A stretch of DNA of 64,000 bases, from NCBI GenBank assembly GCA_032718475.1, contig JAUCBJ010003070.1, forward strand, positions 1 through 64,000. Reading direction: 5' to 3'. Positions 200 to 64,000 of this stretch are shown piece by piece (the first letter of the stretch is position 1; every line of letters starts with the position of its first letter). The notes below the pieces were generated by a model. That model was not told the origin of the DNA. It saw only the letters and a program-made list of their open reading frames with translations, and did no database searches. The stretch is from Nemertoderma westbladi (taxonomy: Eukaryota; Animalia; Xenacoelomorpha). The position numbers were made by a program, and so were the translations under genes.

Positions 200-273
200 T
201 AACCACCAGTCAATTAAACCTGACCGGGGATCAGTGCCTCTGCGTGGGCAATACGACTTCTTCTGTCCAACAA

Positions 274-1541: not shown

Positions 1542-1683
1542 TAACAAAAAGAGTGAATAAACCACAGAACAAATCGTACTTATATATCAGCTTATCAGTA
1601 AGGAGCATAGCCAATATGGCAAAATTATACAAGCTGGATATGCAGATAATGTCACTAAATGGCGTCACACCCTTAGTAAAGCA

Positions 1684-3533: not shown

Positions 3534-3921
3534 TAATTTAACCAAAATAGACGATATTATATCGTAACCAACTTTATCAATATAAAATGGTGTTTTGAGC
3601 TTAAAATTAGTAAAATAAGTAATCTAAAAGGCTAAGTTCACACGTGCAGCAACAACCTAAAAGTGGATCTTTTCGTGGAATCTCGTTATTCTTAGAATTT
3701 TTCTTGGAATTTCGTTACACTTTGTAATGATAGTGTATAATGAAGTTCTATTGGTTTCATTTTTGTTCTTTTTTTCTTTGGTCGATTGTCGGTCTCTGTG
3801 AATTTAATTATAGATTGTAGGGTCCAACCCTAATTAATTTTTGTGCTACGTGTTTCGTTTAGTATATTAAAAATGTACGTAGAGTAGCATGGGTCATTAG
3901 TGCCCGATAATGGAAAGGAAA

Positions 3922-6339: not shown

Positions 6340-8400
6340 AATATTTCTCCATTTGACGCAACACCGCCGCGGCCGCTATGAGGGAGGTGAATACCGCGGC
6401 CGCTCCTAAAGCCGCAGGCCATCGCTAACTATATAGGTTAACTTGGGATTCTGGGGGACTTTTCGATGAAGGAACTGACCAAATTTTTTTATTTTCTCAC
6501 CAGGGGAGCGGCTCGGAATTCTAAGATATTAGCAACTCTAACATTATTAAATCTAACCCTTCGACGGACACGGCGGACAAAAAACCGTCATTTTTTCGAC
6601 AATTTTAAAATTTTTTTGAAAGGCGCTCTACAGTGGCTCAAAAAAACCCTAGGTTTTTGCTTAGCCGACGCCGGGATACGATAGAAGGGATTAATTAGTG
6701 AATTCGTTTTTTTTTTCAAAAAAGATTACCACGCCTTTTTTCCGAAAATGTCCGTCAAAGTTGAAAAAACGGACAAAATGACTTTGCGGGATCCGCTATA
6801 ACTCGGCTAATATTAATCGTACGGGGACGAAAGTAACGCGGTTGGAAAGGGGAAGAGTGGTACTACCTTCGTATCGAATGGGGGTAAGATATTTATTAAA
6901 ATTTCGGGTGGAAAAAGGGGCTGTAAATTTATACGTTTTTGTCCGTCTTTTTTGGAAAACTTATTTCCGAAATGTTTAATTCGACAACGCGGGTAGGAAT
7001 CCACTAATTCTTTTATGAAACTCGTAGAAGACCATTGGGGCTACGTTCCTATCGAATGGGGGTACAAAAAATATGTCGGCAATAGGGGCCAAAAAGGGCC
7101 AGAATTTGTAAAGTAGTTTTTATCGAATAATTTTTTATTTTTAACTTTAGTTGGTTAAGGTACATTCTATACAGTCAATATCAATACGGGGAATTCAAAT
7201 ATGCTATCGGTTTTGCTCCAAGGATGATATTAAAAAAATGAGGGCCAAAATTATGCTTTCGCGCTTCAAACTTGCTTCGCGGGAAATCGTCTAGCTCGAA
7301 AACTACTTAACTTACCGGAGATTTGTTTACACAGACTTATAGTGCGTTAAATTATCTATCTAACAGCGTTAATCACAGCGCCGGAGGTATTATAAAACTG
7401 GAGCGGCAGGCGATCGTGTGAAATATAATATTTATAAAAAGGGACGAAAATTTTTTTTTTTAACAATTCGCTATTCCATTATAATTTAGCGTATTGCGCC
7501 AAAAGTACCTGTAAAAAGTATCAAATTAACTCCGCTATCTTTTATCTTAACATATATAATTAAAATTACGAATTTTAAGGGTCGAAAAATATCGCGTTAT
7601 TTTGGCCCTTTTTTTTAATTTTTTTGGGGCCAAAAATAACCCCTTCTCAAAAGATTAAGAAAAAAATTACGGCAAAGAATATACCAATTTTATTGAATTT
7701 GGACCACCAGAACCGAAGTTAGAGCGATTTTAGTGAAAAAATAAAAATAATTTTTTTTGCAAAAAAATTAAGAATGGTCAGGTCAATATTGGATTTCGAA
7801 CCCGCGAACTTAGGTTTCATTAACGTGATTGATAACCACTAGACTATGTGACCAAGAGAATTTGAAATTTTCGAGTGACTATTTTTAAACATAAATAACT
7901 TCGGTTCTACAGGGCCGTTTAATCTGAAACTTTTTTCATTGGATAGAGGATAGATTGTAGTGTGTGAAATAGAATAAAACTTGGGAAAAGACTTATGTGC
8001 ACTTAGTGCAAAATGCACTTAAACAGTGAACATTTTTTCGATATTTCAAACACTGTTATTTCCAGTTCTATTCATCGTAGAATATTATTTTTTGGATTAA
8101 AATGTAGTTTGGAATGATTTCTAACTATAATCGTAACATTTGTTCAACTTTTTATGTCTATAAAGTGACTTAAAAATGTCCATGAATATGGTCCAAAATT
8201 GCAAATCCAGATTTATTAAATTGGATTTTTGACACTTTTAGCGACTGACACTTGATCATACACCATCGTAGATCGGTAGAGGATAAACATAAGTTTTTCA
8301 TATCATATTTTCATATTAATATGTTGTTTGAACCTTACTGAGCGCATTAGGGGATATGCGTACAAATAACCGGCCCTTATGAGGCTTCGATTGGGTAAAT
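6340..8400. mobile_element. Putative non-autonomous DNA element (CpG-rich, non-coding), boundaries approximate
   Basis: Abrupt CpG enrichment, GC-rich palindromic left end (two GCGGCCGC), internal Pol III A/B-box-like pair on the minus strand near 7790-7850. No clear TIR or TSD found. Confidence 0.3.
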
Positions 8401-10988: not shown

Positions 10989-13449
10989 AGCATTATATAG
11001 ACAATTAAAAACTGCACCTACTGGTGTATTTAGTCCACCTCTGGCCGACGTGCTGTTTTGCTATGAAGGAAAGTATACTTTTGCCACCTGTTTTCTAGAA
11101 CGGATACCTCCGTTTTGGATCCCTCCCACTAGAATGATTTGACAATTCACCAATAAATGTGATACTTTTCTGGCGGAGAAATTATTCATCTTCAAAATTA
11201 GGTATGTGTACGAAAAGTGCAATGGTCTGCACTTTTCGTACACAATGCATTTTTCACAAAATGGAGTATTGTGGGAGGCTTGAATCACTTTGGATGGATG
11301 GGTTGAACCACTTTCCTGTTGGTTGTTATGGGTATTTATCTACAGGTACGGATAGTATTTAGTAGGAATAATGGACTATGCTTGTTTCATTGTTACTTTC
11401 TTGTCAACCTGTGGTCCCAGGTAGTAGATAACGGTAGAGGCAGAGTCGGAAGATGTTCATTGTGAGTCCAAACCAGAGCCACATGGTATAGTCACTGGAG
11501 GGGGAGAATAAGAAACGCACCGATTACCTATAATTGAACTAAATAAACAATAATTAACTCAATGTGCTGGATTTGGTATTATTGTAAAATAAAAAAACGA
11601 CAGTTTTTAATGAAGATAGAACAGTCACTGGCAGACAAACACTGAAAAAACACAAACAAACAGACAGAAAGACTAATTTTCATTAACATATATTCATTTG
11701 ATAACATTGCTTCTATGGGTGGTTCAACCCTCCTAACCCCCCTGATTCAAGCCTCCTATATGGGGTAGGAGGCGTGAACAAGAAAACTCGGCTCTGGAAA
11801 ACGCTTATTTCTCATATAATACATGATTTTAGAACCTTTAATATGTATTCCAATAGATGCGGAATAGATTGTTTTAGGTTTGTGCAATTTCAGCTTGAAG
11901 CTACGATGTGGAACAGAATAAATTATTATTTTTTGTAAAAATGGGCCGCAAAGCCCATCTCGGTGAAGTAATACAAAATTATCACTTCAGAAGTGGCACG
12001 TTATTCTAACTAAAAAAAATTAATTAAACTAAAATTAATAGAAAAGGTTACTGTTTTATTTTTAGAGCAATCAGTTATTGCATCGAATTTGCATCGATTT
12101 TCCCCTGGGGCGGGATGAACTTTTATTGCTTTGAAAGTCTCTGACTTTATCATAAACTTACCTCGATTCTCCCTGCAACACTTCTATAAGAGAATTATGG
12201 CGGTGGCTAATTTTAGAGTTGCTCTCAACTGCATTGCGAATATTCATTGTTTCAAGGACAGACCAATTCTGTTTATCTTTATGTGTGCGAGATAACATGG
12301 TTTAGGTTTATACAATAATGATGACCTTACAAGGTCTAATAGGTTGCTTATTCTTGTTCTTTACAAAATTTAAAATAATAAATATTATGATTGTTATTAT
12401 GGTTGATTATTACTAAGTTCAAAACGGTTCGATTTTTCTTGTTAGCTAAGACAAATCTAAAACCCGATTTGGAATCAGGAATGTCGAATTATGTATAATA
12501 AACATACCGAAAACATGCGAATATTATCGAAGAAACTTTTTTCTCATTACAGTGAAATAAGATATAAGTTGTGCCTGATAAGTAATTTGAGAGTTTATTG
12601 GAGATTATGAATAAACTTGTGCCAGAAAAACCTAAAACCAGATTTGGAATCAGCGTGGTTGAATTACCCCCATTGTACTAAAGCTCCTTTCAATGTTGTA
12701 AATTGGATTGTACGATTCGAGCTCATCGCTCTTATTTGTTTAATCGCGATTATCTAAGAATGGTGTTTTTTACGTTTTACCCTTTGTCTCAGCAACTAGA
12801 AGCAGTATGGACTTGAATTATTATAGTAAATATAGAATAATAAATTATAGAAATTCCTGGTGAAATTTACAACTGAACTATATGGTTGACATAAAAAATA
12901 CTAAACCTTTTACATACAGTAGTCGGGCCTACAGAAGAAACATATTATTCACAAAATTATGGAATATTTCAATATGAACTATATAGGACAATTTTTATTA
13001 ATATTATAGTCGCAGTTAGTTAGTTTGCGGTTTAATAATTTAAGATTTAATACATAGAATGCAATTTAAAATACCAATGCAACTTTACTTAGGTTATACA
13101 AACAGTAAAACAGCAGAAAGATGGAAATGTTGTTTATCGACTGACCATAATATCGGTATTATAATCAAAATCACCTTTCTGTTGAAATTTTTGATTACAA
13201 AATTATATTAAACATTAATTTGAATGAATGTAGAGAAAACAAATTGCCTTATCATTTTCAATTTTTATATTCTGTATTATCGTTGCTATAACAACCGGGG
13301 CAGGTGTTGTATAAATAATTGATTTAATATTTAGCAACAGATTAGTTAGGAATTGTCCTGTAATCTCATCGGATTGAGAAATCGATGTGACACGAATTAA
13401 ATTGCTCACAGCCATCACAGGACCGAATCATGCTGCGATAATACATTAT

Positions 13450-14677
13450 TGTAAAAGCTTCTGTGGGATGTAACTGGCCCTTCGCCCCGCAACCCAGTTT
13501 TTCCCCCATACGCTAAAATACTCTGAAACCTACTGTAAAGGTTTTTCTGAGATATGACTGATTTGTTTTCTTTGCTAACCAGTTCCCCCCTCCAAGGCGT
13601 TGGAATCCTCCAGGAGGGATCTGAGCTGTTCGATTGGCCAGCCGGCTTGGGAAGGTTGCCCCAGTTACCCATAGCCCTGCGTTGAGTTAGTTCTGATTTC
13701 GACCAATCCCGAGCTACTGAACTGAAATTATCCTATCTCACTGCCGATTACATGTGTTGAACGGGATTCTTGGAAAATAAGAGAGCTAAAGTCACGGGAC
13801 TTTTGTTATGATTTTGAGACTTTATTATCAGAGTTTTAAGACCGTGTTGAGATAGCGAAATGTTTTCTGCCTTTTTTGTAAGAACATTAGTAGGCAAAAT
13901 TATAGAAAGCATAGCTATTATCGACTCATTTAATTCATTGATCTCATCACTTGCAATCTAATTGTATCTTAACCTACCGTCATACTGCTTTTACTGTTTG
14001 TAATTTTGTATCAGTATAATTGGATGTTATTAGTTGAAGAATATCAATAATCAACCCACATTTTCCCAATATCCTTGATACACTACAGGTTAGAGAGAAG
14101 GGTTATGTACAACAATTGCGACTTTATTATTGTGTTTGTAGTGAATCTAATGTTGTTTGACAGACACTACCTGAGTCCAGTGCATATCTCTTTATACCTG
14201 ATCAAAGTCAGTAACTGTCGGCATATCAGTGAGCAGTGTTGTGCGTTACCGGTAGCGTGCGTGATTGTAAAGTGATTGGATCTGATAATAAAGCATTCCT
14301 AAAGAATGCGCCCTATGCTTGAAATTTAAGCCATATCGTTGTGTGTAGTATCAGTCATAACTCTGTTTACATAGGTAGAGCGCCACGTCCTAAAAGGAAC
14401 TGCTAATATTTCCCGAAAGTGAATAATATTTGTCAGAGATTATATATTAGTAATCAATCGAATAATACAGTAGGCTTGACCGCAAATAAATTTAAGCCCA
14501 CGAATCCAGTCTCCCGGTGTTATAAACGGGTCATTTGGACGCGCATGGACTGGCTTCGGCTAATGTTTTTGGTTTGTTTTTGTATTAAATCTTGTCATCT
14601 TATAAAAGGCAGTTTATCAATAAAGACATATAAATTTCGGCAGGTTAAACTGCTGAAGGTCTATAAAAGCGCGTACA
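13450..14677 (+). repeat. 5' LTR of BEL-1
   Basis: 1228-bp direct repeat of 26967-28194 with TG...CA ends; no differences seen by eye. Confidence 0.95.
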
Positions 14678-16710
14678 ATAATAGCTATCGATCTTATTTG
14701 CGGTAAGCAATAAGATTGAAAATACCGGCACTCCAGTAGGTCAGTAGGCCCAACTGTCATAACCGGTACTACTACCGTAGGTCCGTAGGCCCAACTGTCA
14801 TAACCGGTACTGCTGTGCAAGTACATTAGTATTATTCGATTTTGATTATTGTATACCGGTAGGTCTTGATACTAAATCGGGGACGCCTGGTTTTTATTGG
14901 GATTTTACTTAGGTTTATTTCTGTCAGTTTTATTTCCTAGTAAGTTAATATTGAGCTGAAGACGTGTAAGTCTGCTCAGATTGTTCAGATCATTGTAGGC
15001 TGGACTGTTGTCTGACGGTTGTTAGGCTTGAAGATTACAGCGTGTGTAGAGAGTCTGATAGGTGCCAGTTAGTAAGTTGGGGCAACTCGTAAGTTGTAAG
15101 GTCAACCCCTATAAAGAATAAGCCGCGCTACCTTATTAGCACGCATACTCACTAACAAGTTTCGGAATCTGCATATACTGTGGTTATTTAGGCTTGATAG
15201 TAGTCCGTCAGCGTTTATCCTGTATTGTTTGTATAGTCTGTTCAGATACCGTAATATTATTCAGATATTTTGTGGGCTGGATTGTTGCCTAGCTGTTGTT
15301 GGGTCTGAAGGAATTGCTACGTGTGTAGAGTAAGTCTGATAAAGTGCCGTTAGTAAGTTGGGGCAGCCATCGCTGTAAGGACAATCCCCTCTTAAAGAAT
15401 AAGTCGTACTACCGTATTAGCACGCATACTAACTAACAGTTTCAGAATCTGCACATACAGTAGTTTGTTTAGGCTTAGTGGTAGTCTGTCAGCATTTTAG
15501 TTTGTATTTTATTTGAGTATTCTGTACGGGTAGCGTAATATTTATTATTCAGAGTTTATGCAATTACTCGCAACATTCATGTCCCCAAGTTTATTCCTAC
15601 AGTAATTGTGTTTGTTATACATACCGTTATAGTTAAATTAACCCCAGTACTACACGGGCTGCTTGGCGTAGGTAAAGACTGGTGACTTAGTGCCCCGGTC
15701 ACTCCAGCAGATGCTGTGGTTCTTTTAACTGTTCAAGTATATTTAACTACTGGTTATCTGTTTTACAAGTACCTGTACCTAATTTAGGGTTTAGTGTACA
15801 GTGCTGTCCGAGAGTAATTAGTGTAGGCATTATTGTGTTGTAAAGTAGTTAATAGGCACGCTCGTTCTGGTAGACGGCGGTAATTAACTTCTAGGTAGGA
15901 ACACTCCGTAGATACATAACGTTGTACCTATAGCGCTACGGCTGTAGGTCGTCAGGCGGTGGTATTTTCCTATCTAGACAACGCAATATTTACTTCTGCT
16001 TATTATTTTCAAATACCGTAGTATCCTGTCCGTTGAAATAACCAGGAGATCTAACCCTTTGTTAGACTGGTTAGTAGTTTCCCTGTAAAATTGCCCTAAA
16101 AATCTGTACGTACCGTTTTTGTGTGTTTATTAGAGATTGTAATCTCACCAATAGTAAGTAACTAGTAAATAAGTAACGTAGGCCAGTAGAATTATTCTGT
16201 TTAGTGTCCCATAAGTAGCACTTCACTGAAAGCGCACAGCTTCTGTGTAGTGGTATTTTACCGGAAATAGTAACACCTATTTCAATCTTGTAACAAATCC
16301 CTTATCAGGGTATATATATATTATAAATCAACTCCAAAGATTTATAAATCAGTAGGCCTGTCATACAACAAGTAGGTCTCAATATCAGTTGGACTACTGC
16401 TTACATAACGGTAACAGAGTAAACTCAAGTAACTAAGTAACCTTATAATTTCAGAAATTCAATTATCCTAAATAATTGATATACCGGTATCTATAATAGG
16501 CTTAATATATATTTGTATATATTTGTACTGAAATTATATACCGGTACTCTGTGACAAACCTAGTCTGCAATAATTATATATACTGTGGGTGTATACCGGT
16601 ATCCTAATATATCGTAATTAATTACCGGTACTAGGCCAACAGTCCTACTGAATTACTGGACTTGCTTTAACTGTAACTATAGCAGTAGGCATTCAACTGT
16701 ATAACTAAAC

Positions 16711-19700
16711 ATGGCTGACATAAAGAAAACTCTGTCAGATAGTCTTTTAGAAACAACAGCCTGTTTCTCAGATCAAAGTGTAGAGAATCCTAGACCGAGA
16801 TCTGAGACCCCTCCTACTGTAAGAAGGGCAACCCCTGCAGTAGTTGTGTCAGAACCTAGGTTGGTAGAAGCGATTTCGCAATTTGCTAAGTTAGTGAAGC
16901 GCCGTAGGTCTGCCATAGGCACTCGGGCCCAAGTCAAACGGAACCCAGAGGAAGCTGTCCTATCGCAGCAACATCCTGATCACGAACCTAGTCCCCAGCG
17001 ACCCGATAGCTCCAGTAGTTCGGAGACTGTTGAGCGGACACCCGAACGCGGAGCGAAAATGGTGGATACGGCTTGTGATGAGCGGCCAACCTTTGAAGAA
17101 TCAACCGACGCCCCTTCTTCTCAAGTAGAAAGCGAAGTGGAAAGCGAAGTGGAAAGCGAAGTGGAAAGCGAAGTGGAAAGCGAATTAACACCAGAAGGAC
17201 CACAAAAGAGAGATGCAATTGATACCTATTTGTCAGATTATCAGCGATTCATAGGAGACAAGGAGTTGAGAAGAAGACTGCATGGATTTACACCTAATAG
17301 TGCAGGGGCTAAGCGTGTATTGGACGAACTCGATGCTGAGATGTTAGCTAAAGATCAAGCTAAATTTGATGAGGAAAGACGCATCGCTAGAGCCCAGGAA
17401 ACACAAGTCCAGAAAAAACAAATAGAAGATCGAAAGGCAGCAGCAGCGGCAGAGGCAGAGGCAGCAAGAAAGTTAGCAGCGGCAGAGGCAGAGGCAGCAA
17501 GCAAGCTAGCAGCGGCAGAGGCAGCAAGCAAGCTAGCAGCGGCAGAGGCAGAGGCAGAAAGAAAATTGACAGAAGCGGAAAAGAGAGCTTCTGACGAGAT
17601 CGCCCAACTAGAGTTGGCAAATCTGCAAGAGACACATGATTACATCAATAAACGCGACACAGAAAGTCGAATGAAGATACTGAGTCGATCTACTTCGAAA
17701 CGCCAAGGTTTTACATCCTCAGAAGAAGGAGACACTACCGACACTGAAGGTGGAAGAAATAGATCCCGTCTCAGTAGGCGTAAAAGAATGTCTCCACGTC
17801 AGAAATTGCCTGATTTGCCTCCAGCTGTTAAGAGACAACTAGCTAGCATAGCAGTAGATAGTACAGAACCCACAGACCAAACTATTACCATTACCAGACT
17901 CCCTACTATAGTAGATGAGCCGGAAATAATTAGGCCTGTTCTAGAAAACACCCCTTCGGTGAGAGAGACCCCTGTACTCCCCAAATCTACTACCAAACTC
18001 CCTTTACACAGTACTATTAAATTAACGGCACCTGGTGGAGCAGCCCAAGTCCCGGTTCTGGAGACTGAGAGAGACATACAAGATCTGTCTCCCGTCGCCC
18101 CGATACGGCCCGCTACAACGTTGGCGACTCCCGCTTCGGCGGTCGAGTGGGTTGAGAAGGGACGGCGGGAGATGAGTCTCTTGCTCGGTCAAATGCGAGA
18201 ACAGCGAGACTGTTCCTCGCAACAGATCCGGGACTTAGAAGGGACTGTCTACCAACTCAAGGGAACCGTAAGGGATAGTAGGATAGAGCTGCAAGAAGTG
18301 CAGCAAAATATCGCTCTCGAGCGCGACAAATTAGTCAATATACAAAGGGGAATACCAACACCCCCTGTAACCCTGTGTCAACCTGCTAGGTCGGAAGTGT
18401 ATCATGCGCGAGGTGTGTCGCCTACACGCATATATACTGCTAGCAAAGTAGAAACACCCCCTATAACCCTGAGTCAACCTGTTAGGTCTGAAGTACATCA
18501 TGCGCAAGGTGTGTCGCCTATACGCATATATACTGCTAGCGAAGTAGAAACTCCTATAGTAAACCCTATTACGGGAGACTACAAACCTGTGAATAATGAT
18601 ATTCCCTATAGACCTGATAATGATCTGAAAAATTTATATACCGATAATTCGATATTAAATAACACGATGGCCCAAGAAAGCTTTACGCGTCAGATGGCTA
18701 GAACAGAAGCCCGCCAAGCGGTCAAAGTGGGAGAAATTGTCAAATTCAACGGTGATGAGATGAAATGGTTACCTTTTAAAGAATATTATGAAGATAGCAT
18801 ACAGAACTCTGTACTATCTAGCGGAGAGAAACTGAGATTCCTCATCAAATGTTTGGAAGGACCTCCCAAGTTAATGGCGTTGAAGTTTATTGGACATCCA
18901 AATGGATTAAGACAAGTCTGGGATACATTAAACACCAGGTATGGTAATAAAGATAATATCGCTAAGTATTTGTATGCAAAACTGGTAGCCCCTCGAAAGT
19001 TCCTTAGTAACGAGATTATAGAGTTTTCCGATGAGATTCAAGAAATCTGCCGACAATTGGATTGGTTAGGTAAGTCCCATGAATATCAGAGCTCCATGGT
19101 CATCGGAGCCATAGTCTCTACTTTGCCAAAGGGTGGAGTATGTACACGTTGGGACAAGAAGGTGTTGCATATGATGGAGCAACAACGACGGAGCCCCACC
19201 ATGGTGGATCTCATGTCATTCCTAGACCGTGAGGTCAAACTACAACTAATAAAGCAATCCAGGGAAAAAACATCGGAAAATCAGGTAAGTGAAAAACCCG
19301 TTTCTAGGAAAAGAATAATACCCGTATGTTATACTGACGACGGCGAAAGCCAGACCTCCCATGAAGAAGACAGCGGGAAAGACACAGCAAGATCCTACGA
19401 TGACCACAAAACCCCGAGAGACGTAAGTAAATACCAGCCTCGAACCAATGATAGGAGAGACAAGCTTACCAAGACCCCTCCTCAGTCTCCCAAAGGAATT
19501 CAGGTAAGCAAGCCCGAAGAACGAGCGAAAGTGCACAGCATTGCCCAAGTTAAAGTGAGTAACATCAAACCAAAATGTGCGCTGTGCGACGGGCCCCACC
19601 GTTTGAGTGCGTGTGCGGAATTCCAAAAGAAATCCCTGGCAGATAGACGTGGAGTCCTGTGGGATAAGCGGTTGTGTTATAACTGTCTCAGACGCGGACA

Positions 19701-21009
19701 CCAGCGGCGAACCTGTTACTCTGACGCAAGGTGTGCTAAGTGCGGCGCGAAACATCATAGCTTATTGCACACAGAATTCGAACGAAACCACCCGAGTCAG
19801 GTAAGTGAGCCCAAATCACATGTCCAATTCAGTGATGTGAACGACACTGACCAAAGTTCTGAGTGGGAAGGATTCTATACTGACGAATTCTCTGATGCCA
19901 ACGAATCCTGTTATCTAATAAACACCGCAGTGTATCGAGCACTTACGTACGAAAAGGATAACGACACGGAGTTTCCATCAACCTCCTTGGACAAGCAACC
20001 ATCTCGGAAAACTCCAACATCCAACATAGGAATACGAGAATTTCCGGTAGTCCAGGTAAGAGTTCACGGTCCCAACAAAAGTTACATAGTGAACGCCCTC
20101 CTTGACTCAGGTAGCACCGGAACATTCATCGACAAGGAGTTAGCCGAGGATATTTTTGCTGGACAACCCAAATTCCGAACTAAGTTAAATATGTCCGGAA
20201 TTATGCAGGTTTGGAAATCTACCTTAATGGCAGATTATTATATCGGCGCATTGTCCACTCCACAGGATAAATTAGGGGAACAAAGTATAGAGTCAGTAAA
20301 AATGGTGGCAATAAAGAACTTCGCTACTACTCAAGTAGAACCTTATGACTGGGACGAGGACGAGAACATCCAACATTTGGGAATACCTCGATTCCAAACT
20401 GATTATCCTGGAGTACAAATCCTTATCGGCCAAAACGCGCATGAGGCGCTCGAGACGTTAGAGAAACGGCCTGCTCAACCGCAGCCATTACAACCTTATG
20501 CGGTAAGAACTCGAGTAGGTTGGTACTTCACTGGCCCTTCCCGCAGAACCCTTGAAGAAAGACTGCCACAAGACCGGATACTTCAAGTAAAAGCTTGGGA
20601 AGAGGAGAGCAGTGAGGTGGACGAAGCCACTGAGGGAACAACATACTCCTCAGATAGCGACGATATCAACTCCAATGTAGATCAATGGAGACATCGACCC
20701 GAGACGATTAATCTAGCCGACATCGCTTCCAGAGGAGTAACTCCTCAAGAACGGATAGATACTCCCGGCTGGTTGGGTGGACCCGACTCCCTAAGTAAAG
20801 AAGAAGAAGAATGGCCTCCTCGTCTTGCCGCGGCGGAGATTAGACAGGCCAAGGGAGCGGAGGAAATATCACGACGGCCTAATCGCCCAGCTGGTCGTTT
20901 AGGTTTACCGGGAAGAGACCGAAAACTGTCCGGAAACCATGGAAGGCAAGATACTCTTCCTACGACCACTTCCCTAATTCGACAAATATCTAGGGACTCC
21001 ATCACGTAA
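16711..21009 (+). CDS. gag-pro: BEL/Pao Gag-aspartic protease polyprotein, RT/RNase H/integrase deleted (1432 aa)
   Basis: DUF1759-like KFNGDEMKWLPF...EKLRFLIKCLEG; triple Cys-His knuckle CALCDGPHRLSAC / CYNCLRRGHQRRTC / CAKCGAKHHSLLH; protease ALLDSGS...TRVGWYFTG; short post-RNase H remnant WRHRPETINLADIASRG...WLGGP; no YxDD motif. Confidence 0.9.
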   Translation: MADIKKTLSDSLLETTACFSDQSVENPRPRSETPPTVRRATPAVVVSEPRLVEAISQFAKLVKRRRSAIGTRAQVKRNPEEAVLSQQHPDHEPSPQRPDSSSSSETVERTPERGAKMVDTACDERPTFEESTDAPSSQVESEVESEVESEVESEVESELTPEGPQKRDAIDTYLSDYQRFIGDKELRRRLHGFTPNSAGAKRVLDELDAEMLAKDQAKFDEERRIARAQETQVQKKQIEDRKAAAAAEAEAARKLAAAEAEAASKLAAAEAASKLAAAEAEAERKLTEAEKRASDEIAQLELANLQETHDYINKRDTESRMKILSRSTSKRQGFTSSEEGDTTDTEGGRNRSRLSRRKRMSPRQKLPDLPPAVKRQLASIAVDSTEPTDQTITITRLPTIVDEPEIIRPVLENTPSVRETPVLPKSTTKLPLHSTIKLTAPGGAAQVPVLETERDIQDLSPVAPIRPATTLATPASAVEWVEKGRREMSLLLGQMREQRDCSSQQIRDLEGTVYQLKGTVRDSRIELQEVQQNIALERDKLVNIQRGIPTPPVTLCQPARSEVYHARGVSPTRIYTASKVETPPITLSQPVRSEVHHAQGVSPIRIYTASEVETPIVNPITGDYKPVNNDIPYRPDNDLKNLYTDNSILNNTMAQESFTRQMARTEARQAVKVGEIVKFNGDEMKWLPFKEYYEDSIQNSVLSSGEKLRFLIKCLEGPPKLMALKFIGHPNGLRQVWDTLNTRYGNKDNIAKYLYAKLVAPRKFLSNEIIEFSDEIQEICRQLDWLGKSHEYQSSMVIGAIVSTLPKGGVCTRWDKKVLHMMEQQRRSPTMVDLMSFLDREVKLQLIKQSREKTSENQVSEKPVSRKRIIPVCYTDDGESQTSHEEDSGKDTARSYDDHKTPRDVSKYQPRTNDRRDKLTKTPPQSPKGIQVSKPEERAKVHSIAQVKVSNIKPKCALCDGPHRLSACAEFQKKSLADRRGVLWDKRLCYNCLRRGHQRRTCYSDARCAKCGAKHHSLLHTEFERNHPSQVSEPKSHVQFSDVNDTDQSSEWEGFYTDEFSDANESCYLINTAVYRALTYEKDNDTEFPSTSLDKQPSRKTPTSNIGIREFPVVQVRVHGPNKSYIVNALLDSGSTGTFIDKELAEDIFAGQPKFRTKLNMSGIMQVWKSTLMADYYIGALSTPQDKLGEQSIESVKMVAIKNFATTQVEPYDWDEDENIQHLGIPRFQTDYPGVQILIGQNAHEALETLEKRPAQPQPLQPYAVRTRVGWYFTGPSRRTLEERLPQDRILQVKAWEEESSEVDEATEGTTYSSDSDDINSNVDQWRHRPETINLADIASRGVTPQERIDTPGWLGGPDSLSKEEEEWPPRLAAAEIRQAKGAEEISRRPNRPAGRLGLPGRDRKLSGNHGRQDTLPTTTSLIRQISRDSIT

Positions 21010-22634
21010 TAATATATGGAGTGGGTGTGTGACTATATTATTTTATATTTGTTTTTATTTTATATTTATGTATGTATTACTATGTATTTTATTATAATCG
21101 TTTTATTTAATTTTATTTAGTAGAGTGTTATTTTAGATTATTTAGTAGATTAGTGCAATATATTAGTGTTTATTACGTAATTACATAATATACTTAGTGC
21201 GACGGCGAGAAATAATTATTTTCTCTTTCCTTACTGTCCGTATTATATTATAAATGCGAGACTACAGTAAGATGAAATGTCCGTACTTATTAAAGTACAA
21301 TAAAGCCACTACTATATTTTCAGTATTATTGGTAGGCAGAGTATTAGGAATGCAAAGTTCAGATCCTCGTGTCTCGGCTAAACCAAGCTCTGGGTAGACC
21401 TTGGAAACGACTTGCCTCTTCACACTGACATTGCCTTGTGCGATATTGCTCTTCTACCTATATTAAATAATACATATAGTAGCGTGATGTCCCTTTAACA
21501 GTAGCGTAAAACGCAAATAAATCTGTTAAACTTTTGACCATCTGTAATTCTAGTCGATTAAGATATCGTGGCACCCACCGATATACTTGAAAGACAAATT
21601 CTAGAATCAGTGGTTAACGTCCCCAGACAAGTTCTGGAATAAATCGGTGCCCATCTTAAATATTAATTTAATATTTATTAAAATCTGTCAAATTCAGATC
21701 CTTTAAAATTTCTAGTTAATTAAGATATCGTAGCACTTACCGGTATTCTTAAAAGACCATTTTATAGAATTAAGGATCTTATGTCCCCAGATATGTTCTG
21801 GAATCAAAATTGTGTCAATCTTACCATCAAATAATAAAATTCACGGGAATAAATTTAAAATTCATATTTTATGAATTTAATAAATTGTCATTTTGCACAA
21901 TTTCTAATATTCCCAAAATTCCACTAATTAATAGATCACGGGAGCGGAGATTAATCCTATTGAGTGTATTAGAGTGCAAGAATCTCCAACATATAGTCAA
22001 TAGCCGACAAAATTCATAAAATCATGTGTAAAGAGGATATGGACAAACTAAAGACTTACTATCAAACAACATCCCAGATCTGTATGCATGAGAACTACCC
22101 TAATTCTACCGCTAGCTTTACATAATGTCACCATAGCAACACCCACGCTAGAATTAAAAAACGAGTTAAAAGAACAATAGAAAACTTGTACCGTTACTCA
22201 GCATAGTGATTGTATAGCACACGGTTGGTATCCAAGGATACACAATAACAACAACGTGACATTCTGGAAGGCATTGACTAACGGACAAATGGCCTGTAGG
22301 ATGGTAGTTGGTAGCTGTTGTGTGGAATTTATGCGTTTGTAGGTGAATGTTGCTGCTAAGGTGTGTTTACAGTAGCTAGTCGCAATTGTAAGATAACCCA
22401 ACTCTCCCATAGCAAGAACCTCAAGTGATAACAAGCCTTTGGGACGGACAGTGGAGGGACTTGTGCCGGTTATCGTTGTCGTGCTGTTGCCACAACGTTG
22501 GCGTAAACACCGCGACAGCGGTACATCGGCGCTGAGAATCCCACTGTCCGGGGGGTCGCGATTAGTAGGCAGCGACGCCCGCTGACCTAAAACATATATA
22601 ACTCGTTACATATTGGTGGATTTCGATAGCAGAT

Positions 22635-25600
22635 ATGACGGAATTGATAGAAGATGATCTTGGTATCAGGGAGCGATATAATGTACCTTTGCAGGCGTTT
22701 GTGGATAGCTTGATAGGTGGTGAACCCGGTCCCACCACTACAGAGGAAGATGGTCGTTACATCGAACCGCCGATGTCCCAAGAGCAACTCACGCGTGAAT
22801 TGGACTATAGAAAATTCACCGCTCGCTATACGCACCGTAATGGTACGTATATGGACTTTCTAACCACCGGCCATCCGATCGACCTACATGATACGGACGA
22901 TGTAGACACCGAAAGAGAAATGGTTTTGTTTAAATATCACGCTCAACGGAGTCGTAACGATAAACCAAGAACAGACCACGAGAACTCTATTCGTAACCGG
23001 CTCGACCGAGAAAACGTTGAGGAACCCGATAAGCGTATCAACTTCAACGACTACCTGGAATTTTTGAGAGAAACTTATCTCAATATTGCCAGTCAACAAA
23101 ACCTAGAGACTCGATATCCTCAAGGTATACATCATGATCCCATGGTAGAACTCCAACGACTATACTTCACCATGATGTATCTCACGGCCGATCGTCCACT
23201 ACCCGTGGTTCCCGATAGCTTTGCACAAATGGAGGAGTATTGCAAAACGGGAGAACGATCACCCGCATTCCCTCTACAGGACTTACGTCTATGGTATTAT
23301 TGTGACGAATGCCCTAGACCCAACCAACAAACGGAAAGACATAAACATCCGCGGAGACGTTGCGCTAAACATAGTTTTACGCGTTGTACGTACGGGAGTT
23401 TCGAGCGAAACCTATTCGATGTGTCGCCCACGGTCGCCCGCCTCAAACGATCACTCAATAAACCCATGATCAGAGTTCCGGAGTACTCGGTTAGGCCTCC
23501 TCATTCACCCGTTAGACCTCAAACTCTTGATCCTAATAGTATCACCGATCCTCCCGAACTATATTCTCTGTTCAAAGACTTGGTGTTACCTGAACAGTTA
23601 ATAGGTGGTACTCCGGTAGTGGGCTCTTTAGACATTAGACCATCCTACCTAGCCGGATTAGGACGCGGGCATCTTATATCGCCATTTAATCCCTACAACC
23701 GCCCCGGATTAACCCCGATTCAACCTGCCACGGAAGTCGAAGAGAGCGTTATTAGAAATGCTTTAGACGCTATTCGACAGAAAATCGGGAAGGGAACACA
23801 GGATTACCTCGAAAAACGTAAATTACAGCAACAAGTTCAAGCGGTGAAGGATTTAGCCTTACCACAGTTCGATCGAGAGATACAAAACCTCGAGGACGAC
23901 ATAGAGCTGGGACGCACGTACTCTCTCCAGGAGTTTCTAGACGAGCGTATGAGACAACGAGCGGAAGAGAACCAACTCGAAAAGAAACATACGGAAATGG
24001 ACGAGAGGGAAGAAGCCGCTTTAGCTCAACCCGAAACCCAAATCCTTATGACGGACTTATACTCTAAAACTATCCGTCATCCCTCGATGATTCCCAACTT
24101 CGGAGATAAACTCTTCGCGAAAGTACAACCCCAACCGGTCGATATTAGTACAGGATCACACCAGCTAATCGCCGACGCCCCCATGTTACAGCGCCCGCCG
24201 ATCGAAGCTGCTCGCGTTGACGGTATACTCGTAGAACCTCCGGACAATCGAGCGGATCTTGTCCGTCGTATGGTACACGATGTCAACATACGCGCTCCCC
24301 CTTTAACGAACTCGTTTTATGGGATTAAAGATCACCCTTATTACGTTAATCTGACTCAATATTATATGATAAAACCGGAAGATCCTATGCATAGCTTGAA
24401 GTTTCTACCGTTAATAAATCCTCTGGACATTGTCGAACTCGAACAATTACAGAAACATTTGGATCAGTTAGTAAAGGTAAACTCTTTTAGAAAACCATAT
24501 AACATTTCTAGAATTGAGAATGATACGATACCTCCTTATAACCTCGATGGATTCATTAAAACTCGATTAGTCCATTGGAATCTCGACGTATTATTCGAGG
24601 AGGAGAGAATAAAAAGACACGGAAATATGGAGACGTGTAACACTCAATCCTTGAAGTATAGTGATCTCCCTGACGCTAACCAATGTGCTACCTTATGGCA
24701 CCCGGTAGGGATGACCCTCGAGAACGCTACAAAAGAGTGGAATGAGACCCTTAATATCATCGAGATGTATGGAGTAGTTACCTACGATAATGAAGGCAGC
24801 GTTCCAGTCGGAGAATTAGGAACCACGCGCATGATCCACATACGCGGATTAGCCGGTTCTACTCACGTGTTTACTCGAGCGTGTTCCGATGTGATTGATT
24901 ATTCTTTTGAAACTCTCACGGAAACACAAAAGAATCTTCGGCATGGTCAATTCGTACTCGCGCAGCGTTACGTCATTGATACCGAACGTAAACCGGCCAT
25001 GGGTATCGATGGATCGATGCTACCCCAACCCGTGCTCGAGATGTTGTTCAATGAAAAGATCCTTAAAATCGGTTCCGCCGTTTATGGAGATCTACAAAAT
25101 GATTTTCGAAATATGGAGGATACACCATATCCATTTGTAGACACGCAGTTAATTGCACCTTGGGCAGAAGGCCGAGGTTTCTTCCGTACCATGTACGCTA
25201 ATACGTCTAACGACATTACTAAAGTTCAACGAACTTCCATCGGACATATTGCCTTTCAGGAATACGGATGGAATTTCAAGGTTGGAAATTCCCTTAATTA
25301 TCAACAAGTATATGGAGACCATTATTCCCGATTATATTTTGACGGACCGTTGACCGCACCTGGCGCCGTGTATAGCTTCATGAGTGTTCCACTCCGTCCC
25401 TCTTTAGCTATCTACACGATCTTGGAAAATACCGCACTTTCCGGTTGGCTAGCCGACGTGTGCAGTCGTACTATACGCGCCCATCCGTTAATACTTGGAA
25501 CCAAACTCGCTAAGCTAGATGAACATAACAAATTCATACGCTTTGAATGTTTCCGGCGATTTCTAACCCCGTTCCACAACGTGGATAGCCAATTTAAAGA

Positions 25601-26888
25601 TCGCGCGTTGACCAAGCTCAGCCTGAGAAGCTCAGCTGCTGAGAAGTTGGATAGTGCCGGATTTGCCCTATTTAAGGATATTTGCATCGAGAATTTACAT
25701 TCTTCTGTTATACAAAGACCTCGACTCACCACAGGTTATTCTGTCGTTGAGATTCAAACAGTAGGTCCACCAGAAGAGTCAACTACGCTCGCCGCAGCTA
25801 CACACTGGGAAGACGAGCCTATGTGTATGGAATCTGAGGAGATTCAACCTACTACGCCCCGGAACAGCGACAACGATTATATTATCGAATGGTATCAAGG
25901 TCCACAGTGTCTCACTGCGTACGATTATCGCCATGCCAACTATGTTGATCGTCAGCGTTGTCGGTTATGCGCATCTAGAGACCATATTACGCCTATGGAT
26001 ACGAATATCCTATGTTCCTATTTCCACGAACAGCCTTCGATGGAAATTTACTGCGCTTATTGTCGACTCAATGATTCGCACATTTTTGCTGTCTGCCCCC
26101 AGTTCATGACGCAATGCCACCATTGTCAGCTGAAAGGACACGCCAGCTTTGATTGTCCCTTCAATAAAGATTTGGAGAGTGTAGACGAAATGATTGTACT
26201 CCGTTACATTCGAGCTTGGGAAGCGAACGCTGATTTACATTGTAACTCACGTCATCGCTACTACCCTGGACGCGCTTACGAAGGAGTCTATGCGTTCCAT
26301 CCGTATTTATTCGCTTCTGTCGAACAGAAAGCGTGCATCCCGAGTTACGAGCTATTAAAGCGCGTCGGAGAATGTATTTCGACTAAGTTTGTGCGCAAAT
26401 TCCTTAGGAGAGTTAACCCCAATGATATTCATTCCTATTATTTAATCAACTTTATCCGACGCGATCCGGACTATGGAGAATTATTCGTTAACTCGCATCC
26501 TGAGTTACAAGAAGTATATCGAAGGCCTTACGAATATCGAGCCCGCGAACGCGAGTTGGAGAGAACCGTTAAACCAAGACAGTTTCTGACAGCCTACGGT
26601 CCACCCACGGCTTCCGTTCAGACCACTCGCAGAGGACCTGTGAGAGCAGCCGTCCTAAAACGAGCCCTAAAGGCCGTTAGACCCCAGTCCCCCGATGTTG
26701 ATGACAACCTACCCGGAACCTCAACTGGCGGATATACCGACAACAATCCTGCACCCTCTGATGCAATTATATTGCACCCTTCACCCAGGAGTTATAGCCC
26801 TCCTTGTAAAGTGGCTCGCCCCAAAGAGAAAAGGACTCTGGCTAGCTTTAAAAAACTGCGTAAACGCCGTCCGCGCAAGAAAGACTAA
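22635..26888 (+). CDS. Cargo ORF2 of BEL-1 (1417 aa): predicted DEDDy-like 3'-5' exonuclease region, Cys/His zinc fingers, basic C-terminal NLS-like tail
   Basis: Uninterrupted 4.25-kb ORF. VVTYDNEG (ExoI-like), ILKIGSAVYGDL (ExoII-like), FVDTQ, YTILE (ExoIII-like). CAYC...H...C and CHHCQLKGHASFDC. Ends KKLRKRRPRKKD. The ORF is certain; the domain call is by eye. Confidence 0.75.
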   Translation: MTELIEDDLGIRERYNVPLQAFVDSLIGGEPGPTTTEEDGRYIEPPMSQEQLTRELDYRKFTARYTHRNGTYMDFLTTGHPIDLHDTDDVDTEREMVLFKYHAQRSRNDKPRTDHENSIRNRLDRENVEEPDKRINFNDYLEFLRETYLNIASQQNLETRYPQGIHHDPMVELQRLYFTMMYLTADRPLPVVPDSFAQMEEYCKTGERSPAFPLQDLRLWYYCDECPRPNQQTERHKHPRRRCAKHSFTRCTYGSFERNLFDVSPTVARLKRSLNKPMIRVPEYSVRPPHSPVRPQTLDPNSITDPPELYSLFKDLVLPEQLIGGTPVVGSLDIRPSYLAGLGRGHLISPFNPYNRPGLTPIQPATEVEESVIRNALDAIRQKIGKGTQDYLEKRKLQQQVQAVKDLALPQFDREIQNLEDDIELGRTYSLQEFLDERMRQRAEENQLEKKHTEMDEREEAALAQPETQILMTDLYSKTIRHPSMIPNFGDKLFAKVQPQPVDISTGSHQLIADAPMLQRPPIEAARVDGILVEPPDNRADLVRRMVHDVNIRAPPLTNSFYGIKDHPYYVNLTQYYMIKPEDPMHSLKFLPLINPLDIVELEQLQKHLDQLVKVNSFRKPYNISRIENDTIPPYNLDGFIKTRLVHWNLDVLFEEERIKRHGNMETCNTQSLKYSDLPDANQCATLWHPVGMTLENATKEWNETLNIIEMYGVVTYDNEGSVPVGELGTTRMIHIRGLAGSTHVFTRACSDVIDYSFETLTETQKNLRHGQFVLAQRYVIDTERKPAMGIDGSMLPQPVLEMLFNEKILKIGSAVYGDLQNDFRNMEDTPYPFVDTQLIAPWAEGRGFFRTMYANTSNDITKVQRTSIGHIAFQEYGWNFKVGNSLNYQQVYGDHYSRLYFDGPLTAPGAVYSFMSVPLRPSLAIYTILENTALSGWLADVCSRTIRAHPLILGTKLAKLDEHNKFIRFECFRRFLTPFHNVDSQFKDRALTKLSLRSSAAEKLDSAGFALFKDICIENLHSSVIQRPRLTTGYSVVEIQTVGPPEESTTLAAATHWEDEPMCMESEEIQPTTPRNSDNDYIIEWYQGPQCLTAYDYRHANYVDRQRCRLCASRDHITPMDTNILCSYFHEQPSMEIYCAYCRLNDSHIFAVCPQFMTQCHHCQLKGHASFDCPFNKDLESVDEMIVLRYIRAWEANADLHCNSRHRYYPGRAYEGVYAFHPYLFASVEQKACIPSYELLKRVGECISTKFVRKFLRRVNPNDIHSYYLINFIRRDPDYGELFVNSHPELQEVYRRPYEYRARERELERTVKPRQFLTAYGPPTASVQTTRRGPVRAAVLKRALKAVRPQSPDVDDNLPGTSTGGYTDNNPAPSDAIILHPSPRSYSPPCKVARPKEKRTLASFKKLRKRRPRKKD

Positions 26889-26966
26889 CGGTTTAGAGTA
26901 TTTATGTATATTAGAAACTGCGATTTTGTATATTTTATAGACTTCAATCTCATTTTCTGGGAGCGG

Positions 26967-28194
26967 TGTAAAAGCTTCTGTGGGATGTAACTGGCCCTTC
27001 GCCCCGCAACCCAGTTTTTCCCCCATACGCTAAAATACTCTGAAACCTACTGTAAAGGTTTTTCTGAGATATGACTGATTTGTTTTCTTTGCTAACCAGT
27101 TCCCCCCTCCAAGGCGTTGGAATCCTCCAGGAGGGATCTGAGCTGTTCGATTGGCCAGCCGGCTTGGGAAGGTTGCCCCAGTTACCCATAGCCCTGCGTT
27201 GAGTTAGTTCTGATTTCGACCAATCCCGAGCTACTGAACTGAAATTATCCTATCTCACTGCCGATTACATGTGTTGAACGGGATTCTTGGAAAATAAGAG
27301 AGCTAAAGTCACGGGACTTTTGTTATGATTTTGAGACTTTATTATCAGAGTTTTAAGACCGTGTTGAGATAGCGAAATGTTTTCTGCCTTTTTTGTAAGA
27401 ACATTAGTAGGCAAAATTATAGAAAGCATAGCTATTATCGACTCATTTAATTCATTGATCTCATCACTTGCAATCTAATTGTATCTTAACCTACCGTCAT
27501 ACTGCTTTTACTGTTTGTAATTTTGTATCAGTATAATTGGATGTTATTAGTTGAAGAATATCAATAATCAACCCACATTTTCCCAATATCCTTGATACAC
27601 TACAGGTTAGAGAGAAGGGTTATGTACAACAATTGCGACTTTATTATTGTGTTTGTAGTGAATCTAATGTTGTTTGACAGACACTACCTGAGTCCAGTGC
27701 ATATCTCTTTATACCTGATCAAAGTCAGTAACTGTCGGCATATCAGTGAGCAGTGTTGTGCGTTACCGGTAGCGTGCGTGATTGTAAAGTGATTGGATCT
27801 GATAATAAAGCATTCCTAAAGAATGCGCCCTATGCTTGAAATTTAAGCCATATCGTTGTGTGTAGTATCAGTCATAACTCTGTTTACATAGGTAGAGCGC
27901 CACGTCCTAAAAGGAACTGCTAATATTTCCCGAAAGTGAATAATATTTGTCAGAGATTATATATTAGTAATCAATCGAATAATACAGTAGGCTTGACCGC
28001 AAATAAATTTAAGCCCACGAATCCAGTCTCCCGGTGTTATAAACGGGTCATTTGGACGCGCATGGACTGGCTTCGGCTAATGTTTTTGGTTTGTTTTTGT
28101 ATTAAATCTTGTCATCTTATAAAAGGCAGTTTATCAATAAAGACATATAAATTTCGGCAGGTTAAACTGCTGAAGGTCTATAAAAGCGCGTACA
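26967..28194 (+). repeat. 3' LTR of BEL-1
   Basis: Direct repeat of 13450-14677, followed by the TSD ATTAT. Confidence 0.95.
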
Positions 28195-28575
28195 ATTATA
28201 ATTATTTGAAATTCTACAGCGCAGTTTAAGATTGCTAGTGCGGCTAGGAGATGCGAAACGAGTCTGTGACAAAGGCCAACAATATGACAACGTTTAGAGG
28301 CCTACAGTACTACCGTTTCCAAAATCCACGGAATATAACAGATATGGGGGGAAACTGGGCGGGAATAGGGGGGCAATAAAAATTCATCCCTCTCCAGGGG
28401 AATAACAGCATATATAGAATATAGGTATATACATATATATATAGAATAACGCAAATAACAGATGATTACTCTCAAAAATAAAACTGTAACCTGTTCTTTT
28501 GTGTTTAGTTTATTGCTTTGGTTAAAATATCGTGCCACTGTAACCTGCACCTTTCCCTAAATTCAGAATTTAACA

Positions 28576-30049: not shown

Positions 30050-32062
30050 CAGTCGGGGTCTCAAAGTGCATCTGTTCTTTGAGATTTTCTCAAAGTTTTT
30101 CTAAAAGTGTCTAAAAGTCATTACATTACTCCCAACGGCCGCTTTGAATTCTTGTAGACACTTTTAGTTTGGAATCTCAAAGTGATTTCCTGCTTTTAGG
30201 CACTTTGAATTCTTTGAGAAATGTCACTTTGAGGTAGTTTGCGGCACTTTTAATTCTTTGAGAAAATAAACTCCGAGGTATTACTGATTGACAGCTCGTG
30301 GTATGTTAACTGAGAGGCAGAGGCATTCTCGGGGAACATGCGGGCAACAAAGTGATACTTGTGTGTTGGCCAGTTGTTGCATAGAAGCTATATTCCCATT
30401 AATTTATCAAATTGAGGTTCCTGAGGTCATTACGGGATGGGTTTTCGGTCGCAAGTACAAATTGAATTTACGGCACCCTAAAGTCTTTCTAAAAAACATT
30501 CATTTAAATAATACATGAAACATAATTAGTGAAACAAGATTAATGCTTGACAAGATTGATTATTTTAATAACATAATACAATATCAGATTAACAATTAAT
30601 ATAAGAGAAACTGCACTGTAGTATCTCTGTGTATACGCAGTTTCATTATAATGACCTAAAGAAGCCCTGTTGGGAGAAAGCTTGTAATAACATTTGTTAT
30701 CGATTTTATTAGTCACCTCAGGTCAAACCGTACTACCTTAACTGTTTAATTAATATGATAACTATGTTGACGAGAGCGCGAGAATTCCTTCTTAAAAACT
30801 AAGAAAGGCTTTCGACTTTCAAGTGAACGGCTACTTGTGTTGTTTTAGCTTAATAGAGATATTAAAATATCCCCTGCCGCTGGCGTTTATATTTGAGCAT
30901 ATTTTAAATGTTTGCCTCATATTCAATTGATGTGTACCGCCTTCTGGCAAAGCGGTACCCAGTTTAAACTATCAATCACAGCTAGTGAGTAGCGACCCAC
31001 GGACGGCGACCTTCAAACAAACAGGTGCAGAGTCGGAAAGAACTGTCACATGCTTTGCTTGGCTTGTGGTACCATTTGATTACATAATAGATTTTGGCAG
31101 ACTGGGCGGTCGCTCTGACCATATGCATTGCGCACCAACAATGCCTAAAACATCTATGGGAACAGCCAATTAGTGCGCTTGAATCATTTACCTTTATTCC
31201 TGCCTCTATCTTTATTCTTTACTTTGTATAACACAATTTACAGTGCGGCAAAGTATGGCTGGTTGACCATTGAAATGCATTGGTAAAGGTATTCGGCGTT
31301 CACGTGGGCTAAACAAATTTAAACAGTACAGTTTTAGCACTATACATTAATATAGATAGGGCAACAGACAAACTGTCTATGACACAAATACCAACACATT
31401 CCGATATCCCGCAATTATGGCGTCTCTAAAGAGTCCAAATATAAATTAATAAAATCCTCTATGAAACAATAAAAATACCTACAAAAAATACTGCTGTATT
31501 AAATATTAGTTACTGCAGTAACATATAACAATTACTGCAGTAACAAATATTTATTACTGCAGTAATAAATATTTATTACTGCAGTAACAAATATTTATTA
31601 CTGCAGTAACAAATATTTATTACTGCAATAATCAATATTAATAAATTAATAAATAATTGAATAAAAATTTATACTGCAGTAATCAATATTAATAAATAAT
31701 TGAATAAAATATTTCTACTGCAGTAACAAATTATTTGTTACTGCAGAAAAATACAATTTTTTATTACTGCAGTAAGTTTAATTCTTACTTTCAGTAACAA
31801 ATATTTATTACTGCAGTATTTTTTGGAGGCATCTTTATTGTTTCATAGAGGTTTTTATTACTTATATTTTACCCTATAGTCAAAGTCAATATACACCATA
31901 CCATAGCCAGCTTCAGGCACGACTGTATGAAATGACTGACAGTACTACTTTGAAATCTTTGAGGACACTTTGTCATTTTCTTGGACCACTTTTAGAAATT
32001 TGAGACACTTTTAGTTCTTTGAGAAAATCTCAAAGAACAGATGCACTTTGAGACCCCGACTG
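30050..32062. mobile_element. Non-autonomous TIR DNA transposon
   Basis: Perfect TIR of ~45 bp (CAGTCGGGGTCTCAAAGTGCATCTGTTCTTTGAGATTTTCTCAAAG) at both ends, flanked by TA; subterminal CACTTT/TTTGAGA repeats; no transposase ORF. Confidence 0.85.
31426..31879. mobile_element. Palindromic MITE nested in 30050-32062
   Basis: Imperfect ~90-bp inverted arms (CCTCTATGAAACAATAAA / TTTATTGTTTCATAGAGG) around a ~22-bp TTACTGCAGTAA-containing tandem repeat. Confidence 0.65.
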
Positions 32063-63958: not shown

Positions 63959-64000
63959 CCGCTCCCAGAAAATGGGATTTAATTATATAAAATATAAAAA

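Follow-up and report, generated by a model that had tools for sequence, protein, structure and literature searches.

Structure of the element and its insertion site

The window, by which we mean the whole stretch of 64,000 nucleotides (nts) of DNA that was analysed and that contains no N letters, carries a 14.7-kb LTR element of Nemertoderma westbladi at 13450-28194, and all of the features described below lie on its + strand. The 5′ LTR (13450-14677) and the 3′ LTR (26967-28194) are of the TG...CA type, start with TGT and finish with ACA, and their alignment gave 0 mismatches over 1228 bp, with a 95% upper bound of divergence of 0.24%. For the LTRs of Belpaoviridae, ICTV gives a range of 0.2-1.2 kb (PMC8742986), and the present LTRs are at its upper end. 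The element is flanked on both sides by ATTAT, the target site duplication (TSD) at 28195-28199 being a perfect copy of that at 13445-13449. Contig X2 record 8, from a public run, fuses position 13444 to 28195 with one ATTAT and hence carries the empty site, indicating that the insertion is real and polymorphic; the match of another contig, X4 record 15, also stops at 13444. The identical LTRs, the perfect TSD and the empty site agree with what the initial annotation had claimed of the two repeats and of the age of the element, which has been recently inserted.

ORF1 and the missing enzymes

ORF1 (16711-21009, 1432 aa) consists of a long low-complexity N-terminus, a BEL Gag, three zinc knuckles, an aspartic protease and an RNase H tail, as deduced from the ORF list, Pfam and a profile. 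Pfam identified DUF1759 (PF03564), the Gag domain of BEL/Pao, at aa 679-807 (18745-19131; E 2.7e-13, above the cut-off), and in addition gave weak protease and weak knuckle matches. The protease region (20050-20565), which runs from the LLDSG motif with Asp1132 as far as the protease match extends, was assigned by PF13650 below the cut-off (E 0.008) and by the profile. When aa 650-1400 of ORF1 were used for a search, 49 proteins were obtained, nearly all of them BEL/Pao-type polyproteins by their Pfam lists, and PF05380, the Pao-specific domain, is annotated in 45 of the 49.

A BEL profile of 1751 columns was made from 36 of the 49 polyproteins (1650-2200 aa) and was compared, unfiltered, with the six frames of the element. 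It matched in two parts, columns 115-626 from Gag to protease (iE 4e-70) and columns 1176-1228 at 20671-20829 (iE 2e-11), and no match was found in the six frames for columns 627-1175 and 1229-1751, which represent RT, the RNase H core and integrase according to names taken from the Pfam lists of the homologues and from known motifs. BEL homology was also absent from any other frame of at least 70 codons in the element. The second matched part is the end of the RNase H region with a linker, in frame behind the protease and covered by contigs across the joint; 45 of the 49 polyproteins gave an HSP there, and the tail amounts to the final ~50 residues of that region. The gap between the two matched parts is ~520 residues in the homologue P0002 versus ~40 in ORF1, and therefore an in-frame deletion has taken out RT and most of RNase H and spared the tail of the latter. 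The joint of this deletion is located within 20566-20670, probably near 20665-20670. The place where integrase is expected is occupied by a non-coding spacer (21010-22634) without remaining BEL homology in the profile search of six frames, and all of the integrase was removed by a second loss.

The tested absence of RT and integrase makes the element a BEL/Pao derivative and not an autonomous belpaovirid. The initial annotation had described an intact Gag-protease ORF and an intact second ORF in a non-autonomous element lacking RT, the RNase H core and integrase; both ORFs, of 1432 aa and 1417 aa, are indeed open, and the description of the losses is to be refined only in that the C-terminal tail of RNase H is kept in ORF1.

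Leader, priming position and purine tract

The 2-kb leader between the 5′ LTR and ORF1 (14678-16710) contains an internal duplication of ~290 nts and is poor in ATG in the sense direction, where only 3 were counted versus 30.9 expected; the numbers for the opposite strand were 19 and 27.7. Similarly, positions 462-1228 of the LTR have 7 ATGs versus 18 expected, and this loss of ATG is compatible with a long translated 5′ leader starting in the middle of the LTR. The leader is also rich in the motif ACCG(G)TA, which occurs 11 times, or 5.4 per kb, versus 0.2 per kb in the flanks.

A primer site of the tRNA type is expected to begin with TGG, and no TGG was found in the 43 nts after the 5′ LTR. 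The 11 nts at the primer-binding position (14678-14688), which are followed by a hairpin, are the exact complement of 11 nts at LTR positions 462-472 (13911-13921), a candidate self-primer. The probability of such a complement by chance, estimated post hoc, was 0.0013-0.002 (27 of 21100 flank positions, 4 of 1990 leader positions and 28 of 20000 shuffles). A TATA-like box at LTR position 452 and, close to 479, a motif resembling an initiator would put the start of the RNA downstream of the 11-mer and therefore count against self-priming. The primer site of belpaovirids is described as 18 nts complementary to the 3′ end of a tRNA (PMC8742986), and that of Tf1-type self-primed elements as complementary to the first bases of their own RNA (available part of PMC4600332). 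Self-priming of the Tf1 type is kept as a lead, though a rather unlikely one. A purine tract, an 8-nt purine-rich run at 26959-26966, precedes the 3′ LTR and is identical in a relative at the end of the window. The 3′ LTR of this relative is located at 62791-63958, and 3 of the 11 letters of the candidate self-primer are different in it.

ORF2 encodes a predicted exonuclease with zinc knuckles

ORF2 (22635-26888) encodes 1417 aa with no transmembrane stretch (maximum KD19 1.15). A DEDDy/RNase D-like 3′-5′ exonuclease domain was assigned to 24777-25439 by the aligned residues D718, E720 and D819, by profile and by HHalign, and three CCHC-type zinc knuckles were assigned to aa 1109-1174 (25959-26156) by sequence and profile. 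Pfam gave no exonuclease hit for ORF2 and no match of any kind in its N-terminal 690 residues, the homologue searches covering the remainder of the protein. In the Atlas, aa 660-1030 adjoin clusters of PF01612 (0.93; 25 of 30 hits), with a shared-feature count of 160, which is below the 170 that true family members typically reach. A profile of 29 bacterial RNase D/Pol I domains matched aa 798-842 with 8.3 bits, a score that none of 300 shuffles reached, and the match to a profile built from 20 stand-alone exonucleases was weak, being equalled by 4 of 300 shuffles (HHalign 1%). When a three-row alignment of ORF2 was compared with 49 bacterial domains by HHalign, the probability was 91.6% (E 8e-7) and the score was 48.3, with 60 column shuffles scoring no higher than 18.5.

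Searching 1.84 billion representative proteins with ORF2 gave 4 hits. Two of them, the distant homologues P0050 (E 1e-7) and P0051 (E 2e-5), combine an exonuclease with three knuckles as ORF2 does; the others, P0052 and P0053, were dismissed as compositional noise. A word-index search found no relative among proteins of near or shorter length, and none was detected by tblastn against phages and plasmids or in scans of viruses and metagenomes. One locus that came up, L134, was rejected because it is no mobile element and codes for a bacterial RNase D-like protein in a neighbourhood of bacterial genes. Against the PDB, the single sequence of ORF2 gave just 2 hits at noise level (E 1.8-2.3), and its profile only the knuckles of HIV nucleocapsid (E 0.01) and EXD2 (E 1.6). 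Two AlphaFold models, with pLDDT of 30 and 28, are unusable as evidence of the fold.

The D-x-E of ExoI, with D718 and E720, and the D of ExoII, D819, do not vary in alignment A1, and long insertions are present inside the domain. Both MAFFT and HHalign place the ExoIII motif, Y-x3-D, at Y913, which is not followed by an acid; residues 919-927 form another PL-x6-Y motif, and behind it stands E931-N-T, in register with the E-N-T of P0050. The fourth catalytic acid would accordingly be E931, with Y927 as the tyrosine of ExoIII, or would be missing if that tyrosine is Y913. We predict from these comparisons that ORF2 is a DEDDy/RNase D-like 3′-5′ RNA exonuclease with zinc knuckles.

Copies, sister contigs and selection

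The stretch, or part of it, is present in six public runs from four studies, one of which may be the source of the window itself, and contigs from 4 of the 9 listed runs were compared with the window; there was no RNA data set among the listed runs containing the stretch. Five contigs of X4, four with 0 differences from the element and one with 1, have a depth of 4629-7329 versus 40.5 for the flank contig. The resulting ratios of 114-181, and 113 for the sister contig X4 record 20, are a rough measure from per-contig or summed depth that gives no copy number, and are therefore read solely as many near-identical copies. Together with the empty site, the deep identical contigs argue, in accordance with the lineage proposed in the initial annotation, that the element is multi-copy. 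Abundant copies with deletions inside ORF2 also exist, their joints skipping 151-2862 nts at a depth of up to 3384, which indicates that ORF2 is not required in cis.

The joint of the RT deletion is crossed by contig X1 record 3 (0 differences, depth 1085) and by contig X5 record 27 with 18 differences in 120 nts. The latter is 85% alike, and the copy in the window is therefore not the sole carrier of the deletion; that the element might be a single copy with a deletion of its own, an outcome against which the initial annotation was to be judged, is countered by this contig. Most contigs that are at least 80% alike are collinear with the element over 20566-21150 in all four runs. Other contigs leave it at the joints. 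X4 record 20 (depth 4562), which is 90% alike (11 differences in 105 nts) up to 20663, the position of the deletion joint, departs there and continues for 289 nts unlike the window, and further contigs depart at 20862, carrying at least 198 extra letters, or enter at 20925, carrying at least 386. These points coincide with the two deletions, and therefore longer sisters exist; at both deletion points they (X4 record 20; X1 records 5 and 8) have a depth like that of the deleted form. The longer sisters are the best candidates for a helper.

Selection was assessed from unphased variants in two sets, the best-supported 40 of 2504 places and the best-supported 40 of 125, with a neutral expectation of 0.285 for the synonymous share. 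Among the best 40 of 2504, 12 of 17 variants listed in ORF2 were synonymous (P 4e-4), and those in ORF1 looked neutral (4 of 12). In the second set, 39 of the best 40 of 125 fell in ORF1: synonymous changes accounted for 12 of 14 at aa 1229-1285, in the protease (P 1e-5), and for 6 of 25 in the tail after aa 1285, which looks neutral. None of the 11 indels listed inside the element among the best 40 of 2504 was within an ORF, and the four listed in ORF1 among the best 40 of 125 occur as two pairs of three letters each. Because of the synonymous excess, the protease and ORF2 look constrained, unlike the RNase H tail and those places of Gag that were sampled. On the question of neutral ORFs raised beforehand, both ORFs show a synonymous excess among the listed variants, ORF1 in its protease; since these variants are unphased to RT-less copies, part of the signal may stem from complete ancestors.

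A decayed relative and the age of ORF2

A decayed relative at ~41760-53266 of the window contains four pieces of ORF2 in order (aa 456-484, 588-619, 1184-1232 and 1343-1383), with a best E of 7e-7, and the DNA matches of two of the pieces beat 200 of 200 shuffles. Upstream of them lies a remnant of the zinc-binding part of integrase. Because the pieces stand behind this remnant, ORF2 is older than the loss of integrase, and by this sequence evidence it appears to be an old third gene of the lineage, in the usual position of a third gene. The proposal that ORF2 is a cargo gene taken up into freed space is contradicted by this arrangement. The relative is also without RT and integrase core, yet it is deleted throughout. 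That it shares the same RT deletion was considered and dismissed, its likeness to the RNase H tail being not significant (108 of 200 shuffles did as well).

Proposed explanation

We consider it probable that the locus holds a BEL/Pao-derived, RT-less, multi-copy element that keeps Gag-protease and a predicted exonuclease gene and is likely moved by the enzymes of a related complete element. The LTR would drive a long RNA, with ORF1 reached by scanning of the leader, and Gag-protease would co-assemble with the Gag-Pol of the helper into mixed particles that package the RNA of the element, so that the RT and integrase of the helper could act on the retained LTR ends and purine tract. ORF2, the ancestral third gene, would be made from a separate or spliced RNA; its knuckles may bind RNA and its exonuclease may trim 3′ ends, in our preferred reading those of the element RNA or of small RNAs directed against the element, acting in trans for the whole family. 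That ORF2 is an active nuclease serving the element has about an even chance. The most extended version, an old animal BEL/Pao satellite that is self-primed by the 5′ end of its own RNA, a mode described for the Tf1/sushi group in the available part of PMC4600332, and that repays its helper by supplying capsid, protease and an active zinc-knuckle exonuclease directed against small-RNA silencing, seems improbable.

The same locus could be explained as a short-lived deletion derivative of an active complete BEL with an exonuclease, whose ORFs are intact because the deletion is young and whose synonymous excess is that of the parent. The unphased variants, the neutral look of the ORF1 tail, the equal depth of longer sisters at both deletion points and the amplification of many other internal deletions all suit such an origin, but the deletion preserves the frame, it is shared with the 85%-alike contig and, in four runs, with most contigs at least 80% alike, and the sister at the joint, with a divergence of 10%, falls short of near-identity; we regard this origin as unlikely. 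An assembly artefact or an old host duplication in place of a mobile element is largely refuted. Although no contig among those listed spans the element and collapsed contigs cannot check the identity of the LTRs, an invention of that identity by the assembly, which had been named beforehand as a pitfall, is countered by the empty-site contig with its single ATTAT and by internal joints crossed by independent contigs, and four studies contain the stretch.

The step assigned to ORF2 could alone be altered, with the rest of the preferred explanation unchanged, if the protein were a catalytically dead DEDD domain serving as an RNA-binding decoy or scaffold against silencing, like Maelstrom or EXD1 (available part of PMC5408684). 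The ExoIII alignment at Y913 without an acid and the long insertions would fit a dead enzyme, whereas the invariance of the three acids in alignment A1 and the second PL-x6-Y motif, with its E-N-T in register with P0050, speak for catalysis; a dead domain is accordingly possible but doubtful.

Comparison with known systems

Compared with BEL/Pao elements (Belpaoviridae, PMC8742986), the present element has in common DUF1759 Gag, three knuckles, protease and RNase H-tail homology in the same order, as well as TG...CA LTRs, a 5-bp TSD and a purine tract. It differs in that RT, the RNase H core, integrase and a visible tRNA-type primer site are absent, in its length of 14.7 kb versus 4.2-10 kb, and in its extra gene, which is a predicted exonuclease and not env.

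Gag-keeping non-autonomous elements of plants include TR-GAG and BARE-2. A further one is RLG_Quinta of wheat, whose helper is Cereba (available part of PMC11302176), and the present element resembles it as a long-lived partner that has Gag but neither RT nor integrase and depends on a complete relative; by this analogy it likely works as a Quinta-type helper-dependent partner. The plant elements differ in belonging to gypsy/copia, and Quinta, as far as the available text of that paper goes, in having a known helper and no protease or nuclease gene. Animal non-autonomous LTR elements with a large third gene are TelKA2n (PMC5408684) and the defective BEL-Pao element Anakin (PMC7642597), where, in the parts of these papers at hand, the third gene is an envelope glycoprotein, in contrast to ORF2 with no transmembrane stretch.

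DEDDy domains occur inside some Dada transposases (available part of PMC3706591). In bdelloid rotifers, the LTR elements Juno and Vesta and the Athena/Terminons carry a DEDDy exonuclease as ORF3, and the carriers include gypsy elements (PMC5408684, for this and the following as far as its available text describes them). Compared by description, rotifer ORF3 and ORF2 are both stand-alone RNase D-like DEDDy genes just before the 3′ LTR. The rotifer carriers keep gag and pol, whereas the present carrier is BEL/Pao-derived and RT-less, and ORF2 differs from ORF3 in having 1417 aa with three knuckles. Our search of openly accessible paper texts listed no DEDDy gene in any BEL/Pao element, and neither "exonuclease" nor "non-autonomous" occurs in the main text of PMC3118150.

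RT-less Gag-keeping partners and DEDDy third genes therefore each have precedents, in Quinta and in the rotifer elements, and their combination in BEL/Pao was not found reported in the texts searched. Such elements are missed or misfiled by classification pipelines based on RT. This intact, young and abundant family makes it testable what the targets of a retroelement exonuclease are and whether non-autonomous partners pay their helpers, and it provides an animal example of a high-copy helper-dependent element keeping Gag-protease. The DEDDy accessory gene, published for rotifer elements only within the searched literature, is hereby extended to BEL/Pao. In addition, ORF3 showed no significant departure from neutrality within the rotifer genome, according to the available text of PMC5408684, whereas the listed variants of ORF2 are mostly synonymous, which adds a sign of purifying selection on a DEDDy gene to what that study describes.

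Relatives of the main element and other repeats in the window

A decayed BEL relative was located at about 41024-54003, where Gag-protease pieces (42071-42996) with 42-59% identity to ORF1, the Gag-protease gene of the main element, are found together with an integrase zinc-domain remnant (46182-46721) and pieces of ORF2, the predicted exonuclease-plus-zinc-knuckle gene, which have kept their order (about 52515-52950). Neither an RT nor an integrase core was detected in this relative. A direct repeat of 736 bp lies at both of its sides (41024-41759 and 53267-54003), and because this repeat lacks TG...CA ends, the extent of the relative is only approximate.

Two other elements lie inside it. 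The LINE at 43415-46126 (minus strand), which we take to be RTE-like, contains endonuclease and RT frames, and its terminus is a (TAC/GTA)n run. The Gypsy-like element at 47563-52114 (minus strand) has LTRs of approximately 290 bp that are 99% alike and frames for Gag, RT, RNase H and integrase, with no obvious protease in the Gag-RT interval.

The third family member (62791-64000, minus strand) is represented by its 3′ LTR and purine tract and extends past the window end. The overall identity of this LTR is 64%, and both of its ends and its second half are conserved best. At 61519-62594 (plus strand), interrupted reading frames carry the motifs TFDATWQKRGH and ELLSDGD and are presumably what is left of a Mutator-like transposase. 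Tandem arrays were observed at 1-5200 (period about 460/1400 bp), 31444-31863 (about 22 bp, palindromic), 55418-58162 (about 15/680 bp) and 59710-60737 (about 68 bp).

Leader motif, ORF2 homologues and deletion derivatives

In the leader between the 5′ LTR and ORF1 (14678-16710), the motif ACCG(G)TA occurs 11 times, a density approximately 25 times that of the flanks. It is a candidate packaging or protein-binding signal.

The distant ORF2 homologues P0050 and P0051, carried by ENA contigs of 9-11.5 kb, are unnamed proteins of 575-648 aa with the same layout of exonuclease plus knuckles, and their family appears to have no existing annotation. Among public contigs, derivatives with internal ORF2 deletions (window positions 22931-26494) are abundant; these are second-level parasites of the main element's family.
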